A DNA stretch of 64,000 bases from Bradymonadia bacterium (GTDB taxonomy: Bacteria; Myxococcota_A; Bradymonadia; UBA7976; UBA1532), in the NCBI GenBank assembly GCA_046290225.1, contig JBKAGE010000078.1:256001-320000 (forward strand), given 5' to 3'. This document shows, piece after piece, positions 44,253-54,449 of the stretch (positions are counted from its first letter, which is position 1; each line of letters starts with the position of its first letter). The position numbers and the translations under genes are program-made. Under the pieces are notes generated by a model, which saw only the letters and a list, made by a program, of their open reading frames with translations, was not told the origin of the DNA and made no database searches.

Positions 44253-45995
44253 GTGGGGACAAAATACCCAGGCCATCTGTTGGATGATCCCTTCGCAGCG
44301 CACGATGCTGCGACTGATCACAGTGGCTTGTCTGATCCGCTTCACACGGATCGGACATGGGATGATCCTGTTGATCCTGGACCCCGCGGTACAGTCCCTG
44401 TGGGCCGTCAGCTCGCACCACGGCCCTCGATTCACCCCCGACACCTGCACCGTAAGGCGACGATTTTCGTCCGCCAGTCCGACATGCCCCGCCTGGCCCA
44501 GGTCGGCCCTCAGCGCCTGATGCAAGAGGTGAAGGGCCTGGGCTTCCAACATGTGGACATCGCCGGTGAAGGTCACCTGGCCTCACGGCACATGGGCCTG
44601 CTCGCAGACATCGCCTCGGGGCGCCTCGGGGCCCTGGTCTCGACCCACAGCGCCGAGATGGGGCCCCCTGACGCGGTCTTGCGCGATCTCCTCAACGCCT
44701 GTGCCATCTCCGGCGCGGTGGTGATCAGCCCGACGGGCATCTACAACCCGAGGCACATGCACGACCGACAGCGTCTCGGCCTCCCGAGCATGCTGTCTCA
44801 CGGCGATCTCAGACACATCAGCAATCAGATCCTGTCGCATATTCGCCAGCCCGCTGCTGCGGGTTTGCGACCCATCCTCCCCGCTGGTCTGCACTGGAAC
44901 AGACACCACCAGGTCGATCTGGATCCTGATCATCAGGTGCGTCAGACCATCAAGGCGGTCTTGGATCGATTCGAACACACTCGAGATGCCTACGATGTGT
45001 TGACCTGGCTGGAGCGTCGGCGAGCTCAGCTCCCCGCCCCGGTCTACACTGAGGGTCAGGCCCGTATGGAGTGGCGCCGACCCAATGCCCAGACGGTGCA
45101 TCAGATCCTCACTGATCCCATGTATGCCGGCGCCTTTGGTCTCGGGCCTCGTTCGGCCTCACCTCATGGGCTCATCGGCAACCCGGATCTGCTCGTGCGC
45201 AATCATCACCCGGGCTACATCCACTGGGATCATTTCGAGCGCAACCAAAAGCTCCTCGGTGAAGAGCGGCCCTACCGCGTCATCGATCTCGTGGCTGATC
45301 AGAGCGCTCAGGGCTTCTCCATGCCCTCCACGCCGACGCCAGCTCAAGCTTCAGGGCTGGTGGATGCCCTGGTAGAAGCCCGACGCTGGGCTGAGGAGAT
45401 CTCTCGTCGCTACGCTCAAGCCTCGTCGAGCAACCGCTTCGTGAAGGCAGAGCTGGAGCGCCAGTGGAACCAGGCTCTGGAGCAGGTGCAGGCGCTCTCG
45501 GCGCGGCTGGCTGCAGAGCAGTCGACGCCCATGCATCAAAACGGCGCCATCACAGCCCCGCTGACGCCCCTGCCGAGCCCGGTGCCTCATCATGGCGGTC
45601 ACATGACACGCTGGCAGCCCCCAGGTGGGCCTCTGATGGCACCGAACGGTGTGCCCAATCACAGCGATCAACGTTACAAGACGTCGAACCCCCTACGGAC
45701 TCTGACGCCGGCGCCCGACATGGACGACTATGACGTGGTGGTGGTGCCGGATTGGGTGGACCCTCAAGCCCTCGCACAGTCGCTGCCTCCATCGACTGCG
45801 AGCCAGCGTCGCCACGAGGAGCACCGCGCTCAACAGCAGGTCGACGCCCTGCTCAACGGTGGAGATGGCCAGCTGCCCCCTGACAGCCTCGCCATCGGTC
45901 TGAACCGCGCCGGCGTCCGCTCAGGGGCTCGAGTCAACTGGACCTCGAACCGGGTACAGCGCGTGCGGCGCTTCAACCGCGAGCGCGACGAGTAG
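44253..45995 (+). CDS. Large serine recombinase-derived protein, catalytic Arg motif and zinc ribbon missing
   Basis: HLHRKATIFVRQS, GIYNPR..DR..LG, DPD..V...I..V...F, ILTDPMYAGAF, HHPGYIHW..FERNQ, NRFVKAELERQWN, LNRAG.R....WTSNRV. Confidence 0.72.
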   Translation: MGTKYPGHLLDDPFAAHDAATDHSGLSDPLHTDRTWDDPVDPGPRGTVPVGRQLAPRPSIHPRHLHRKATIFVRQSDMPRLAQVGPQRLMQEVKGLGFQHVDIAGEGHLASRHMGLLADIASGRLGALVSTHSAEMGPPDAVLRDLLNACAISGAVVISPTGIYNPRHMHDRQRLGLPSMLSHGDLRHISNQILSHIRQPAAAGLRPILPAGLHWNRHHQVDLDPDHQVRQTIKAVLDRFEHTRDAYDVLTWLERRRAQLPAPVYTEGQARMEWRRPNAQTVHQILTDPMYAGAFGLGPRSASPHGLIGNPDLLVRNHHPGYIHWDHFERNQKLLGEERPYRVIDLVADQSAQGFSMPSTPTPAQASGLVDALVEARRWAEEISRRYAQASSSNRFVKAELERQWNQALEQVQALSARLAAEQSTPMHQNGAITAPLTPLPSPVPHHGGHMTRWQPPGGPLMAPNGVPNHSDQRYKTSNPLRTLTPAPDMDDYDVVVVPDWVDPQALAQSLPPSTASQRRHEEHRAQQQVDALLNGGDGQLPPDSLAIGLNRAGVRSGARVNWTSNRVQRVRRFNRERDE

Positions 45996-48012: not shown

Positions 48013-50370
48013 ATGCGAATCACTGGCGTTCTTCTTCTCCTGCTCGCGCTCGCCCCTACCCCTGAGGCACACGCTGACGGGCTGGACCTCGCGCTCAAGC
48101 TCAAGAAGTACTACGGCCGCGGCAAATACATCGCCCAATCAGGCAAGTACCTCACCAACTACAATGACTGCCGTGCACGTGGTGCCACAGAAGAACAGTG
48201 CAGGGCGCTGGCGACCTTCTGCGCGATCCAGGACGCACCCCTCTTCGGCCGATATGCGGGCTTCTTCAAATCGCTGGGGCTCAATCAAGCCTTCAAGCTC
48301 GATTGTGGCAGCCAGGAGTGCTTTCAGTGCTGTTATGTGCCCGGCGAAGGCTGTCACACCTCGTTCATCGGCTTTCCCGTCATCAACTGCAACGCACGCT
48401 ATGGCGAAGGCACCCGCGCAGCCGGGTTGACGCTGATCACCGATCCTGACGCGATGCCGGGAGAAGCCTGCATCTCGATCCCTCAGACCTGCGAGCACAT
48501 CGCAGTGTGCGCCGGCCCGGAAAACTTCGAGACCATTCGAGAGGCCGTAGACGCGGGCGAGGACCACCCAGTCAATGCCCCCAATGCGGCAGAAAATCGC
48601 GGGAAGTTCTTCGCGAGTCAGGTGTATCAGAAGTGGTGTGAGGCGCTTGATCTGTTCGACACCGTTGTCCCCCGTGATCCAACGGTGCCGGGGTTCGACA
48701 CGGTGGTGGACCTGCAGGACTTCGTCACTGGGCGCGGCTGTGTGGGCTGGCGCTCCAGAGTAGGTGACGCCTTCCCCTTCGACTGGTCCGAAGAGTACTT
48801 CGCGATTATGGACGAAGAGGGTGCACTGGTCCCTGCGGCCTCTCACCGAAATGGCCTGTGTCAGTTGGGCGCGTTGCGCATCTTGGAGAGCGTGCCTGCC
48901 CTGGCCGAGCGATTGAGCTTCATCGACTCCACGGTCTGGCCTGACCCGCTCCGAGACGCCTATCTTGCACAGCTGGCCGATCCCGATGCCGCGTTCTCCG
49001 AACACGCCGATCCCATCGTCCGTGACATCCTCGCGTGTAACACGGGGGTCTACGACTACCGCATGCTGGCGGTGCCACTGGCGGACGAGCCCGAGCCAGG
49101 GCGGGTCTTCAACGGCTGCGAGTTGGGAGAAGCACCTCGCATCGATCTGAGCGCAGAGCCGATGGCACCGCGGGCAGTTCAACTCACAGTCGAGATCGAT
49201 GATCCCGAGGTGGGCACCCCTGATGCGGCCCCTGTCCAGCTGACCGTCTTCTGGGGAGATGGCCGAGTTGACCAACTCGAGGCACCCTCTGGCCAGAGGT
49301 CCATCGACACCACCCACACCTATGCCGACCCCGGCCGCTACACGGTCTTTACGCTGGCAGAGAACACTTCGGGCCTCCGTGGCTTTGCTGGGCTGGTGAT
49401 CGAGAGCGGCCCGGGTGAGCCTGGAGAAGCTGAAGGTCCGGTCATCGTCTCCGAAGTGCGTTTGGTGGATGCAATCGCCCGCGCCAACACACTGTCCGGC
49501 AACGCCAGGCGGATGTTCTTTCAAGTCGATGGGCACGACGCAGACACAGGTGAGCATCATCGAATCGGCCTGAGCCCGGACCGTGAGATCGCGTTCAACA
49601 CCGACACCGCAATGGGGACTGTGGTGGGCCACAACACTGGGGCGGCCGCCTTGGACTTCATCACGCTGCGTCCGCAGTGGCGCGACGGCTTCTACACAGG
49701 GTTCCGCAAGGCCTTCATGCACATTGCAGGTCTGGAGATGCACATTTTCGATACAACGACTGGAGACTCGCGCGTCGTCGAGCTGCCGCTCACGCCGGAC
49801 ACTGTACGGGTCTTCGTGCATGACCGGGAGGAGCCGCTCACACCAGAAGAGCTCGTCGTTGACGAAATGGGTCGGCTGGAGCTCTTTCTGCACGATCGCG
49901 ATCGCTTGACCGAGCGCATCGAAATCGACCTGCCTCAAGATCTGCTGATCGCCGGCGCACCGGGCCCGGTTGATGGCCCAGAGGGTGATGGGCAGTGGTA
50001 CGAAGAGCGTCCTGGCCACTTCCTCCCGGTCCTACCCCCCATGGAGATGGGCGATCCGGACATGGGCCTTGAGGGCATGGAAGACGCTGCCATGAGCGAT
50101 GCGGCTGTGAGCGACTCAGGTGTGGGTGCCGCAGATATGGGAGAAGCCGATATGCGCGACGCAGGCATGGAGGTTTTGGACATGCACGTCGCAGCGGACC
50201 AGGGCGATGGCGAGCCCGATGGGCAGCAGCCCGAGGCGGGCATCGGCGGCTCGACGGGCGAGGCGGATGGTGGTGGTGGCAGTTGCAGCACCACATCAGG
50301 CCGGCCCGGCTCCATGATCTGGCTCTTGTTGCTGGCTGCTTCGGTCAGCTGGCGTAGACGCTTCTGTTAA
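48013..50370 (+). CDS. Secreted surface protein: Cys-rich N-domain, PKD domain, MYXO-CTERM-like anchor
   Basis: Signal peptide; WGDG...HTYADPGRYTV PKD motif; C-terminus GGGGSCSTT...WLLLLAASVSWRRR. Confidence 0.8.
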   Translation: MRITGVLLLLLALAPTPEAHADGLDLALKLKKYYGRGKYIAQSGKYLTNYNDCRARGATEEQCRALATFCAIQDAPLFGRYAGFFKSLGLNQAFKLDCGSQECFQCCYVPGEGCHTSFIGFPVINCNARYGEGTRAAGLTLITDPDAMPGEACISIPQTCEHIAVCAGPENFETIREAVDAGEDHPVNAPNAAENRGKFFASQVYQKWCEALDLFDTVVPRDPTVPGFDTVVDLQDFVTGRGCVGWRSRVGDAFPFDWSEEYFAIMDEEGALVPAASHRNGLCQLGALRILESVPALAERLSFIDSTVWPDPLRDAYLAQLADPDAAFSEHADPIVRDILACNTGVYDYRMLAVPLADEPEPGRVFNGCELGEAPRIDLSAEPMAPRAVQLTVEIDDPEVGTPDAAPVQLTVFWGDGRVDQLEAPSGQRSIDTTHTYADPGRYTVFTLAENTSGLRGFAGLVIESGPGEPGEAEGPVIVSEVRLVDAIARANTLSGNARRMFFQVDGHDADTGEHHRIGLSPDREIAFNTDTAMGTVVGHNTGAAALDFITLRPQWRDGFYTGFRKAFMHIAGLEMHIFDTTTGDSRVVELPLTPDTVRVFVHDREEPLTPEELVVDEMGRLELFLHDRDRLTERIEIDLPQDLLIAGAPGPVDGPEGDGQWYEERPGHFLPVLPPMEMGDPDMGLEGMEDAAMSDAAVSDSGVGAADMGEADMRDAGMEVLDMHVAADQGDGEPDGQQPEAGIGGSTGEADGGGGSCSTTSGRPGSMIWLLLLAASVSWRRRFC

Positions 50371-51711: not shown

Positions 51712-52335
51712 TTAATGCTTTTCATAGAGGCCACCTACACAGCTCTTCCCACTGCTGGACTGGTGGTGTTTCTTGTAGAGCCCTCCGCAGCAGACCTCAC
51801 CTGTCGGGGACTCATAGTAGGCATCGTATAGCCCACCACAGGCGACCTTGCCGGTATTGGACACGTGGTACGACTTGAACAACCCCCCTGCACACACATT
51901 GCCGGTACTCGACACGTGATACGAGTCGTACTGGCCTCCACACGCCACCTGACCAGTACTTGATACGTGATACGACTTGAACAAGCCCCCTGCGCAGACC
52001 TCTCCCATGCTCGACACGTGGTACCCGTCATATTGACCACCACAGGCGACCTTGCCGGTACTGGACACATGGTAGGACGTGTAGAGCCCCCCTGCGCAGA
52101 CCTCTCCCGTACTCGACACATGATATGAGTCGTAGAGACCGCCGCAGCATACGAGGCCCTCTGAGGTCACGTGGTACGAGGTGAACTTTTTCCCGCAGAT
52201 GGGGATGCCCATGACCACCTGGTATGAGTCTTCGCTGGCCTGAGCCTCAGGCGGAGCAGAGCCATCAGTCCCAATGAAAAGTACAGCGGCCCCCAACAAC
52301 GCCGACACACACCCGAGCACTTTTGCGTTCGCCAT
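51712..52335 (-). CDS. Secreted protein made of 17-aa Cys/His-containing tandem repeats
   Basis: Start ATG 52335 gives a signal peptide (MANAKVLGCVSALLGAAVLF); about 9 repeats GGLYxSYHVSSTGxV(CA/AC). Confidence 0.8.
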   Translation of the reverse strand: MANAKVLGCVSALLGAAVLFIGTDGSAPPEAQASEDSYQVVMGIPICGKKFTSYHVTSEGLVCCGGLYDSYHVSSTGEVCAGGLYTSYHVSSTGKVACGGQYDGYHVSSMGEVCAGGLFKSYHVSSTGQVACGGQYDSYHVSSTGNVCAGGLFKSYHVSNTGKVACGGLYDAYYESPTGEVCCGGLYKKHHQSSSGKSCVGGLYEKH

Positions 52336-52989: not shown

Positions 52990-53017
52990 TTTGCACAATT
53001 GCGCAAACATGCATAAT
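52990..53017 (+). promoter_or_regulatory. Palindromic operator and promoter of the ArsR-metallothionein operon
   Basis: TTTGCACAATTGCGCAAA (52990-53007), 8 of 9 pairs complementary; CATAAT at 53012-53017, 8 nt before the GTG start. Confidence 0.65.
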
Positions 53018-53025
53018 CTACCTCG

Positions 53026-53328
53026 GTGAACAACGAAGCCCTACGAGAACTGGCCGATCTCTTGAAGGCATTGGGTGAGGTCAACAGACTCTCGCTGGTG
53101 TGCAGGCTCTGCGAATGCAGATCGCCCCAAAACGCGATGTGTTTGTGTGACTGCTGCAATGTCGATGCCTCGGGTGTCTCCCGACACCTCAAGGTCCTTA
53201 CTCAGGAGGGCATCCTGAGTGTGGAGAAGCGTGGTCGAGAGAGAAACTACTCACTGAACCGGGCCTATGTGGCTCAACAATTACGCGTGCTCGCGGACAA
53301 GATCGAGCATGATACGGAGGCATCATGA
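53026..53328 (+). CDS. ArsR/SmtB family metalloregulator, unusually Cys-rich
   Basis: LKALGEVNRL..., SGVSRHLKVL, VEKRGRERNYSL winged HTH; CRLCEC and MCLCDCC (7 Cys). Confidence 0.9.
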   Translation: MNNEALRELADLLKALGEVNRLSLVCRLCECRSPQNAMCLCDCCNVDASGVSRHLKVLTQEGILSVEKRGRERNYSLNRAYVAQQLRVLADKIEHDTEAS

Positions 53329-53420
53329 GCAACGAAAAGTGTAAGTGTGATTGCAAAAAGGCCGACTGCTGCGTCAAGAAGACCTGTGCCTGCTGCAAAG
53401 AAAAGTGCTGTTGTCGCTGA
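53325..53420 (+). CDS. Metallothionein-like peptide, 31 aa, 11 Cys (not in ORF track)
   Basis: MSNEKCKCDCKKADCCVKKTCACCKEKCCCR*; GGAGG RBS at 53316-53320; ATGA overlap with the ArsR stop. Confidence 0.85.
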   Translation: MSNEKCKCDCKKADCCVKKTCACCKEKCCCR

Positions 53421-53510
53421 CAGAGAACCCTGTCCACACATCTCCCCTCACTGTCCCGATCCCTTTCGAAGACGTGCGGGCCCGGCTCAGCTACGAACCC
53501 TACCCTGTAC

Positions 53511-54449
53511 TCAGCTGCCCATCCGCGAGAAGAACTGCTCCATGACGGGCTTGGGCTGACGATCCACAGTGAACAGCCCCCAGTGCTTCTCGGGCTCGTT
53601 CGGATCAGGTGAGCCCTTCCACGGCTCGTCGAAGGCCTCGAAGACATAGATGCGCATGCCGCGGGCCTCACCCCATGCGGTGAGCTCGTCGTAGTACCGC
53701 CGTTGATGATCCACGTTGGCGTTGTGGGGCTCGATGCCCCGGCCATTGCTCCGAGTGGCCCAGCCCGCCTCGGTGATGGCGATCTCCACCCCAGGGTGAC
53801 GCTGCTCGATGCGGGTGATGTCATTGATGGTGACTTCCAGCGCCTCGTCGATGCTCTTGTACTCCCAGACTGGGTAGGTGTGCACCGAGATGAAGTCGAG
53901 CTCCGGCACCAGGGCATCGAGCTTGCCCATCCAGGGCACGTGGTTCTCACAGAAGGTCACCGGCAAGCCCGTGTCGGCCTTTGCTCGCCGCACCAGCTCG
54001 ATCATCCGCTCTACAGGTACGAGATGGCCCGTCCAGTCCACGGTGGCTTCGTTGCCCACAGCGATCGAAGTGATGATGTTCGGGTATCGTTGCACGAACT
54101 CTGCGAGCCGGCCGACCTCGGCGTCGTTGTTGCCGACGTTCACAGTGAGCTGGTCGTCGGTGTACCAGGCTCCCCATGGGCACCCCGGGTTGTTGATCTC
54201 CGCGCTGAGCCAGGCGCCGAGCAATACCTTCAGGTCGAGGCCGAGGCGCTGGATGGCAGAGAGGACGAGCTCTGCGTGAGGGCCAGTGTCGTACAGCCGT
54301 ATGTAGCGCCACCGTCGGGCGAGGATGTGCAAATCCTCTTCGATCTGCTCTGGCGACGGGAAGATGCCTGCGTCGGGGCTCTGGCCATCACGATAGCCGG
54401 AGTAACAGATGCCCTGATGGACAAGACGTTCGGGCAACTCAGCGTTCAA
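53511..54449 (-). CDS. Glycoside hydrolase family 17-like (beta-1,3-glucanase/transglycosylase)
   Basis: ICYSGYRDGQSP, IRLY, AVGNEA acid/base, ITEAGW nucleophile, FEAFDEPWK...WGLF. Confidence 0.88.
   Translation of the reverse strand: MNAELPERLVHQGICYSGYRDGQSPDAGIFPSPEQIEEDLHILARRWRYIRLYDTGPHAELVLSAIQRLGLDLKVLLGAWLSAEINNPGCPWGAWYTDDQLTVNVGNNDAEVGRLAEFVQRYPNIITSIAVGNEATVDWTGHLVPVERMIELVRRAKADTGLPVTFCENHVPWMGKLDALVPELDFISVHTYPVWEYKSIDEALEVTINDITRIEQRHPGVEIAITEAGWATRSNGRGIEPHNANVDHQRRYYDELTAWGEARGMRIYVFEAFDEPWKGSPDPNEPEKHWGLFTVDRQPKPVMEQFFSRMGS

Follow-up and report, generated by a model that had tools for sequence, protein, structure and literature searches.

Few bacterial metallothioneins have been characterised, namely those of the BmtA/SmtA type, MymT and a thioredoxin fusion (PMC13578184, PMC10612145; here and below, PMC numbers refer to the available part of each source). 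The control of a metallothionein by an ArsR-type repressor is established for SmtB-SmtA (PMC3323870), and in the BmtA family (PF02069; SmtB-SmtA of Synechococcus PCC 7942, BxmR-BmtA, AzuR-NmtA) the gene for an ArsR/SmtB repressor lies beside a small Cys-rich gene. In marine Synechococcus, the BmtA metallothionein serves in zinc banking under the control of Zur (PMC9337993). Metallothionein candidates mined from the environment contain on average 10.6% Cys and 13.3% His, as against 31.7% Cys in animal metallothioneins (PMC11705764), and the 11/12-Cys animal domains that have been measured bind four ions (PMC8476144).

Here, I describe a two-gene unit in which an ArsR/SmtB-family repressor gene and a small Cys-rich gene likewise adjoin each other. 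It was found in the window, that is, the whole stretch of 64,000 nucleotides that was analysed, where its coding part comprises the following features:

53026-53328, plus strand: ArsR/SmtB-family repressor gene, 100 aa, GTG start, likely leaderless
53316-53320, plus strand: GGAGG, the Shine-Dalgarno sequence of the peptide gene, within the 3' end of arsR, 4 nt from the ATG
53325-53420, plus strand: 11-Cys peptide gene (candidate metallothionein), 31 aa, MSNEKCKCDCKKADCCVKKTCACCKEKCCCR

A sequence-only reading of this DNA had reported, behind an ArsR gene, an open reading frame of 31 aa with 11 Cys, 8 Lys and neither His nor aromatic residues, together with an ATGA overlap of the arsR stop and the peptide start and a GGAGG ribosome-binding site; the frame, its composition, the overlap (at 53325-53328) and the GGAGG are all present. 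So is the Cys arrangement that it had given, CxCxC, CC, CxCC and CCC, which in the window peptide occupies 53340-53414 with the spacing CxCxC-x4-CC-x4-CxCC-x3-CCC; exactly this core is found in 84 of the 85 distinct peptides of the family, the remaining one having one extra residue.

A scan of 185,579 genomes for the ArsR recovered 21 loci. In 19, the ArsR is 63-83% identical to that of the window, and all 19 have the peptide gene directly 3' of arsR. From a metagenome scan, the best 80 of 109 relatives were analysed: 77 have an intact peptide gene, one a frameshifted gene (L125) and one no peptide gene at all (L106), and in one the contig ends inside arsR. Over the genome loci and the best 80 of 109 metagenome relatives taken together, an intact peptide gene stands behind arsR in 96 of 98 scorable loci, above what chance would give, and the conservation of a small Cys-rich frame behind ArsR homologs, for which the earlier reading had proposed a search, is borne out. 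With the window included, the locus set amounts to 97 intact loci, 85 distinct peptides and 76 lineages, all 97 with the two genes in tandem on the same strand. Two loci with distant ArsRs, L050 and L051, were left out of the counts, the ArsR of L050 being 29% identical and the 7-Cys stretch that follows it a chance frame.

The same association emerges when the peptide is sought first. When 401 genomes of the phylum were searched with a nucleotide pattern of the Cys core, the matches listed fell in 15 genomes; nine of the 15 were dropped because antisense poly-Gln or similar repeats mimic the Cys pattern (two loci were translated, the others judged from the matches listed), and all six genuine matches adjoin this ArsR, so that the peptide occurs in at least six of the 401 genomes among the matches listed. 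Peptides fused within longer proteins were absent from the 8000 candidates scored, the sole match of that form being an ArsR with an over-long start.

The unit is patchily distributed, a close ArsR being found in 2 of the 27 genomes of the window's family, and it reaches Myxococcota, Pseudomonadota (Alteromonas sp. 5E99-2, a RefSeq genome, L040, and other Gammaproteobacteria), Planctomycetota and Candidatus Hydrogenedens. A partly marine range is suggested by the Alteromonadaceae and by one contig with TARA in its name. Third-position GC content tracks that of the host, from 0.27 to 0.87, which suggests long residence in the hosts following horizontal spread; in the window, the module has 53% GC and the window as a whole 63%. 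Carriage by plasmids or phages was rejected, as there was no plasmid match at E ≤ 1e-15 and the single viral match was spurious.

The peptide gene is a real, conserved small gene. Synonymous divergence is saturated (uncorrected pS 0.97) against a pN of 0.24, over non-independent pairs; both Cys codons are in use at each of the 11 Cys positions, the spacer residues being variable, and the two alternative frames are closed by stops in 76 of 84 and 79 of 84 cases. The recurrence of the gene behind arsR, the difference between pS and pN and the closed frames rule out a chance frame or a frame artefact. A precursor of a modified peptide or a secreted disulfide peptide is likewise ruled out, since the family peptides have no leader or signal sequence and, among the flanking ORFs scanned, no modifying enzyme or transporter is conserved beside the gene. 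Behind the peptide gene, hairpins are stronger than in shuffled sequence in 48 of 84 relatives; no terminator was found behind that of the window.

Two RNA-library runs of one study contain a relative 90-95% identical to the window module, with contigs spanning 53044-53270 and 53256-53536 in one run and 53052-53206 in the other, and with all 11 Cys kept; across 19.9 kb there are only five other short pieces of RNA contig. These contigs fit transcription weakly, being blind to strand, level and transcript ends and possibly derived from DNA.

Two imperfect relatives and one extended one deserve mention. In L125 (890-985), the reading frames of the peptide gene are shifted within a region that resembles its relatives, owing to a sequencing error or to decay into a pseudogene. 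In L106 (1596-1898), a close ArsR with all six Cys stands beside a HupE/UreJ-like gene, without operator or peptide gene, and is possibly a decayed or rewired copy. In L100 (2640-2740), the peptide gene is followed by a second short Cys-rich frame with DCCAP/DCCAA repeats, the start of which is not obvious.

The family peptides are 30-39 aa long in 84 of 85 cases, mostly 30-31 aa, and 34.6% Cys, values that lie within the size and Cys content by which PMC8476144 defines metallothioneins. The Cys number 11 in 84 of 85 distinct peptides and 12 in one, the chain ends 0-1 residues past the CCC in 77 of 85, and a His and an aromatic residue occur in one peptide each of the 85, neither being conserved. 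The comparison with metallothionein HMMs that the sequence-only reading had proposed gave no match to a described model: none of 82 peptides matched the Pfam or NCBIfam metallothionein models at E ≤ 1, in a search whose HMMER filters can drop low-complexity matches. PF02069 had no match in the window's genome and found its Synechococcus control. No metallothionein in the PDB matched the peptide, two matches at E of about 1 being due to chance. The metal-free peptide is predicted to be mostly coil, and its model had no PDB match at Z ≥ 2; in an ESM Atlas search it scored 0.80 at best, with an insect-metallothionein cluster at 0.77, which is a lead only.

MymT of Mycobacterium tuberculosis and the metallothioneins of Pseudomonas are, like the present peptide, small, Cys-rich, bacterial metal-binding proteins that were long overlooked. 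MymT differs in length and His content and is controlled by RicR. It is moreover a copper metallothionein with a motif of its own (PMC10612145), and those of Pseudomonas are His-rich and SmtA-like and have no metal regulator (PMC7387436), unlike the 11-Cys peptide. The BmtA proteins have a zinc-finger fold, His ligands and a conserved Tyr (PMC3323870), and the 11-Cys peptide has neither the His nor the Tyr; smtB and smtA are divergent (PMC7387436), whereas here the two genes are in tandem and coupled.

In its make-up, the peptide is animal-like, on the figures of PMC11705764 and PMC10612145. With the 11/12-Cys domains of animals (the alpha domains of vertebrates, echinoderms and molluscs, and the single-domain ascidian metallothioneins) it shares 11 Cys, some 35% Cys and the want of His and aromatic residues, with the echinoderm alpha domain also the CC-x4 spacing and with the ascidian protein the one-domain size, and its CC, CxCC and CCC clusters are those of the Cd metallothioneins of Tetrahymena and other ciliates (PMC4862169). 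Its spacing, however, differs from all seven 11/12-Cys patterns in Table 1 of PMC8476144, among them that of the vertebrate alpha domain, CCxCCx3Cx2Cx3[CxC]x4-12Cx1-3CC, and its 11 Cys span 25 residues against, by the present count, 26 or more in that table. The likeness to the vertebrate alpha domain drawn by the sequence-only reading therefore ends at the number of Cys. Of the eukaryote-style make-up that it had also claimed, the freedom from His and aromatic residues and the greater nearness to animal than to bacterial metallothioneins held; Lys-richness did not, and is no family trait, because the net charge ranges from -8 to +6. Convergence is the simpler reading of the resemblance; no sign of transfer from a eukaryote was seen.

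The repressor belongs to the ArsR family by NCBIfam NF033788 (59 bits, above the cut-off of 55), scores just below the cut-off of Pfam HTH_5 (20.1 against 22 bits) and has CadC (E from 3e-10 to 8e-8), CzrA and SmtB as its best relatives in the PDB. Of its Cys, C26 is variable and six others, C29, C31, C39, C41, C43 and C44, are each found in 84-85 of 85 distinct relatives. C39-x-C41, each Cys of which is present in 84 of 85, aligns with the alpha-3 CxC of CadC, a feature shared with the CadC/AztR (alpha-3N) and ArsR (alpha-3) sensors; relative to CadC there is a four-residue insert before the CxC (C29, C31), a CC after it and a three-residue deletion before the recognition helix. CadC and AztR have an N-terminal Cys pair, which is missing here, as is an efflux pump in the operon: no N-terminal Cys of an alpha-3N site was found, and no Cys precedes position 26 in 30 aligned relatives. 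The alpha-5 site that SmtB possesses is likewise absent, its zinc motif DxHx10Hx2(H/E) occurring in none of the 97 loci (one ArsR is clipped at the contig start). Alpha-3 sites composed wholly of Cys are used for Cd, Pb, Zn, As or peroxide, and the putative six-Cys site appears to fit none of those listed in the available part of the source exactly (PMC11672702). The ArsR model has a pLDDT of 74.6, but of 58-61 across the Cys region, and a TM of 0.37 to CzrA and SmtB; this weakness over the Cys makes it useless for placing the metal site. A more distant group of ArsRs, 40-42% identical (L004, 1408-1860, and L005, 1354-1836), has RRPCS..ECCPVDLSVVSRHL and Cys-rich tails, and no peptide follows them.

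Upstream of arsR, the predicted control elements overlap one another:

52990-53007, no strand: the palindrome of the sequence-only reading, 18 bp, 8 of 9 pairs, not on the conserved axis
52991-53014, no strand: operator palindrome, predicted site of an ArsR dimer, 24 bp, family consensus TTGCATATTTGCGCAAATATGCAA, centre 53002/53003
52991-53019, plus strand: predicted promoter, -35 TTGCAC at 52991-52996, 17 nt, -10 TAATCT at 53014-53019

The 18-bp palindrome that had been placed over the promoter does exist, and an operator unique in the genome is there, but the axis conserved in the family lies 4 bp to the right, which makes the 18-bp palindrome a by-product of a three-part TTGCA repeat. Of the 12 pairs of the operator, 8 are complementary in the window's copy; among 78 distinct sites of the family, complementarity of the inner pairs holds in 70-71, and 67 begin 34-36 nt ahead of the arsR start. 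With a matrix built from these 78 sites, the window's included, the 8.58-Mb genome scores above 12 bits three times, each time at this locus; no second operator was found elsewhere in that genome, and a wider regulon in it was rejected since the operator occurs there once. A second operator copy lies some 24-33 bp upstream of the first in L058, L062, L065, L067, L068, L071 and L079, and L071 has an additional site 2.2 kb downstream. L106, with its intact-looking ArsR and no peptide, is the locus from which the operator is also missing.

The left arm of the operator doubles as the -35 hexamer. The search for sigma-70-like promoters returned one site against 0.5 expected in shuffled sequence and is weak alone, and an alternative register, TTTGCA-16-CATAAT, overlaps the predicted one. 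Of 75 upstream regions, 36 have a TAnnnT that ends 5-8 nt ahead of the start codon, against 12% of shuffled sequences, and a further 30 have nAnnnT. Transcription from the predicted promoter would begin on the arsR start codon or immediately beside it. A Shine-Dalgarno sequence precedes arsR in none of the 75 upstream regions and the peptide gene in 70 of 75 relatives, from which the arsR transcript is likely leaderless and the peptide would be translated more strongly than the repressor.

Beyond the two genes there is no conserved third: when the 357 flanking ORFs were clustered, none of the 228 clusters proved to be conserved adjoining the unit (232 ORFs, with every cluster outside the window represented, were compared with Pfam, and the labels spread within clusters by BLAST). 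The commonest neighbour is COG0523/CobW, which is found in 15 of 97 loci and 12 of 76 lineages; it occurs to either side of the unit, its sequences form five groups at 50% identity, and 14 of the 15 checked keep GCxCC. About 0.07 would be expected in the 342 kb examined, by a baseline of 41 matches in 191 Mb that is drawn solely from relatives of the window's genome. Near distant ArsRs it is absent from all 29 loci (96 kb). COG0523 is sometimes found near BmtA-type genes as well, which annotation likewise often misses (PMC3323870). COG0523, znuABC, DUF1826 and FolE2 have been placed in Zur-regulated clusters (PMC2770081); here, COG0523, ZnuA, DUF1826 and FolE2 together mark 18 loci of 14 lineages, a number that rises to 26 loci and 21 lineages when HupE/UreJ_2, MerC plus Fur, CobN, NicO, DUF3526, CDF and CbiM are added. 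On a tree restricted to the 70 loci that extend over at least 3 kb, there are nine changes of the zinc label, at least five of them forced by well-supported branches. None of the four markers is present in 79 of the 97 loci, many of them on short contigs; the window is among these, the neighbours there being a divergent SMI1/KNR4 gene and a convergent GH17 gene, both unrelated to metals.

Other neighbours recur as well. A gene for a DUF4876-like lipoprotein is the third commonest neighbour family (eight loci of seven lineages: L038, L088, L089, L097, L098, L104, L116 and L118), often stands alongside COG0523, and its product is a candidate zinc-uptake component. In L035, L037, L093, L094 and L096, a short COG0523-like gene, with GCxCC kept and a degenerate Walker A, adjoins MerC-family and Fur-family genes.

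The peptide is likely a metal-binding metallothionein of some form and, on balance, the two-gene unit would seem to be a self-regulating zinc/cadmium buffer, that is, a new metallothionein family under autorepression. A metal-free ArsR dimer on the palindrome would block its own promoter, and surplus Zn(II) or Cd(II), bound at the Cys cluster around helix 3, would release it; one short mRNA would then yield little repressor, arsR being leaderless, and much peptide, through its Shine-Dalgarno sequence and stop/start coupling. The peptide would fold round about four divalent ions by means of thiolates only, upon which free metal would fall and repression be restored. Stored zinc could be drawn on later, and this reuse of banked zinc would account for the recurrence of zinc-starvation genes near the unit. 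The absence from the ArsR of the alpha-5 His site and of the N-terminal alpha-3N Cys argues against zinc or cadmium. Some COG0523 proteins, for their part, serve cobalt and other metals, and accessory genes cluster in islands.

ArsR sites composed of Cys alone are also suitable for Cu(I), Hg(II), As(III) and oxidants (PMC11672702). That the circuit is the same and that Cu(I), Ag(I) or Hg(II) is what the repressor senses and the peptide binds is unlikely. Cys would supply every ligand in both proteins, the alpha-5 zinc site is missing, an Hg-sensing ArsR of Streptomyces has more than six Cys (PMC11672702) and MerC-family genes are present in four loci of two lineages; yet the neighbours scanned include no recurrent copper ATPase, multicopper oxidase or mer operon, those that do recur being zinc-starvation genes, and in ciliates CC, CXCC and CCC are Cd-type clusters and CXC is Cu-type (PMC4862169).

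A buffer of thiol redox or sulfur, in which vicinal Cys of the repressor would sense peroxide or persulfide and the peptide would be a sacrificial store of thiols, is improbable, since 11 Cys at fixed spacing exceed the constraint that a thiol sponge needs, the helix-5 Cys of SqrR/BigR is absent from this ArsR and the unit has no conserved peroxidase or sulfur enzyme. Its precedent would be RexT, which senses H2O2 via vicinal Cys of helix 3 (PMC11672702), the C43-C44 pair being invariant here, and genes for pyridine-nucleotide disulfide oxidoreductases and of the CMD family recur in a few loci. The alpha-3 CxC with nearby Cys, which aligns with C39-x-C41, is the canonical As(III) site (PMC11672702), and an ArsC-like phosphatase and an aquaporin gene lie near the unit in one lineage and an ArsP_1 permease gene in one locus; but ars-type neighbours are confined to 2 of 76 lineages as against 14 with zinc markers, the ArsC-like and aquaporin genes are on the opposite strand, and ArsB/Acr3 was not found beside the unit, so that an ArsR sensing arsenite or antimonite and inducing an As-trapping peptide is very improbable. 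Least probable is a role of the peptide as metal-sensing partner (co- or anti-repressor) to the ArsR rather than as a bulk chelator, as SrnQ is the metal-binding partner that SrnR needs (PMC11672702), for, almost inseparable as the two genes are, with the ATGA overlap in 61 of 97 loci, the gap between them reaches 61 nt elsewhere, the pair, having a single operator in the genome, would regulate only itself, and non-Cys positions that vary freely, with a net charge of -8 to +6, fit a protein-binding surface poorly.

To return to the zinc/cadmium buffer, it may tentatively be taken further, namely as an independently evolved class of bacterial metallothionein, carried by heterotrophs of at least four phyla, which would combine the most compact four-metal, all-thiolate cluster protein yet described (11 Cys in 25 residues) with a new six-Cys ArsR site and would bank zinc beside zinc-starvation genes, and which would have gone unseen because gene callers skip the peptide gene. 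The gene is indeed mostly missed by gene callers: none of 16 family peptides looked up in a set of 15 billion proteins is present, the Alteromonas ArsR being there under a name, and a profile search of 1.84 billion protein representatives returned three unnamed members of the same family and no others. From the absence of all 16 peptides, an annotation gap would seem to account in part for the scarcity of bacterial metallothioneins.

The 11-Cys family appears undescribed. No description of it was found in the openly accessible literature, five of its motif words are absent from four supplements of PMC11705764 (the sequence sets of which are kept elsewhere), and the available part of PMC13578184 (2026) names only cyanobacterial, mycobacterial, Salmonella and Pseudomonas metallothioneins. 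If the preferred reading is true, bacteria arrived independently at a metallothionein of the animal style, free of His, 35% Cys and rigid in its spacing, in four phyla, and a new sensing site is added to those of ArsR proteins.

Three other genes of the window may be recorded. A 580-aa ORF at 44253-45995 (plus strand), about 7 kb from the module, has a weak match to Recombinase (PF07508) and is possibly a relic of a mobile element. At 51712-52335 (minus strand), a protein of 207 aa, for which Pfam returned nothing convincing, has a hydrophobic stretch at its N terminus and contains a 17-residue repeat of the YHVSSTGxVxCGGLY kind in about ten copies. At 48013-50370 (plus strand), a Cys-rich protein of 785 aa, probably at the surface, has a weak PKD domain and a C-terminal tail of GCS followed by a hydrophobic-basic segment, which presumably resembles a myxobacterial sorting signal.
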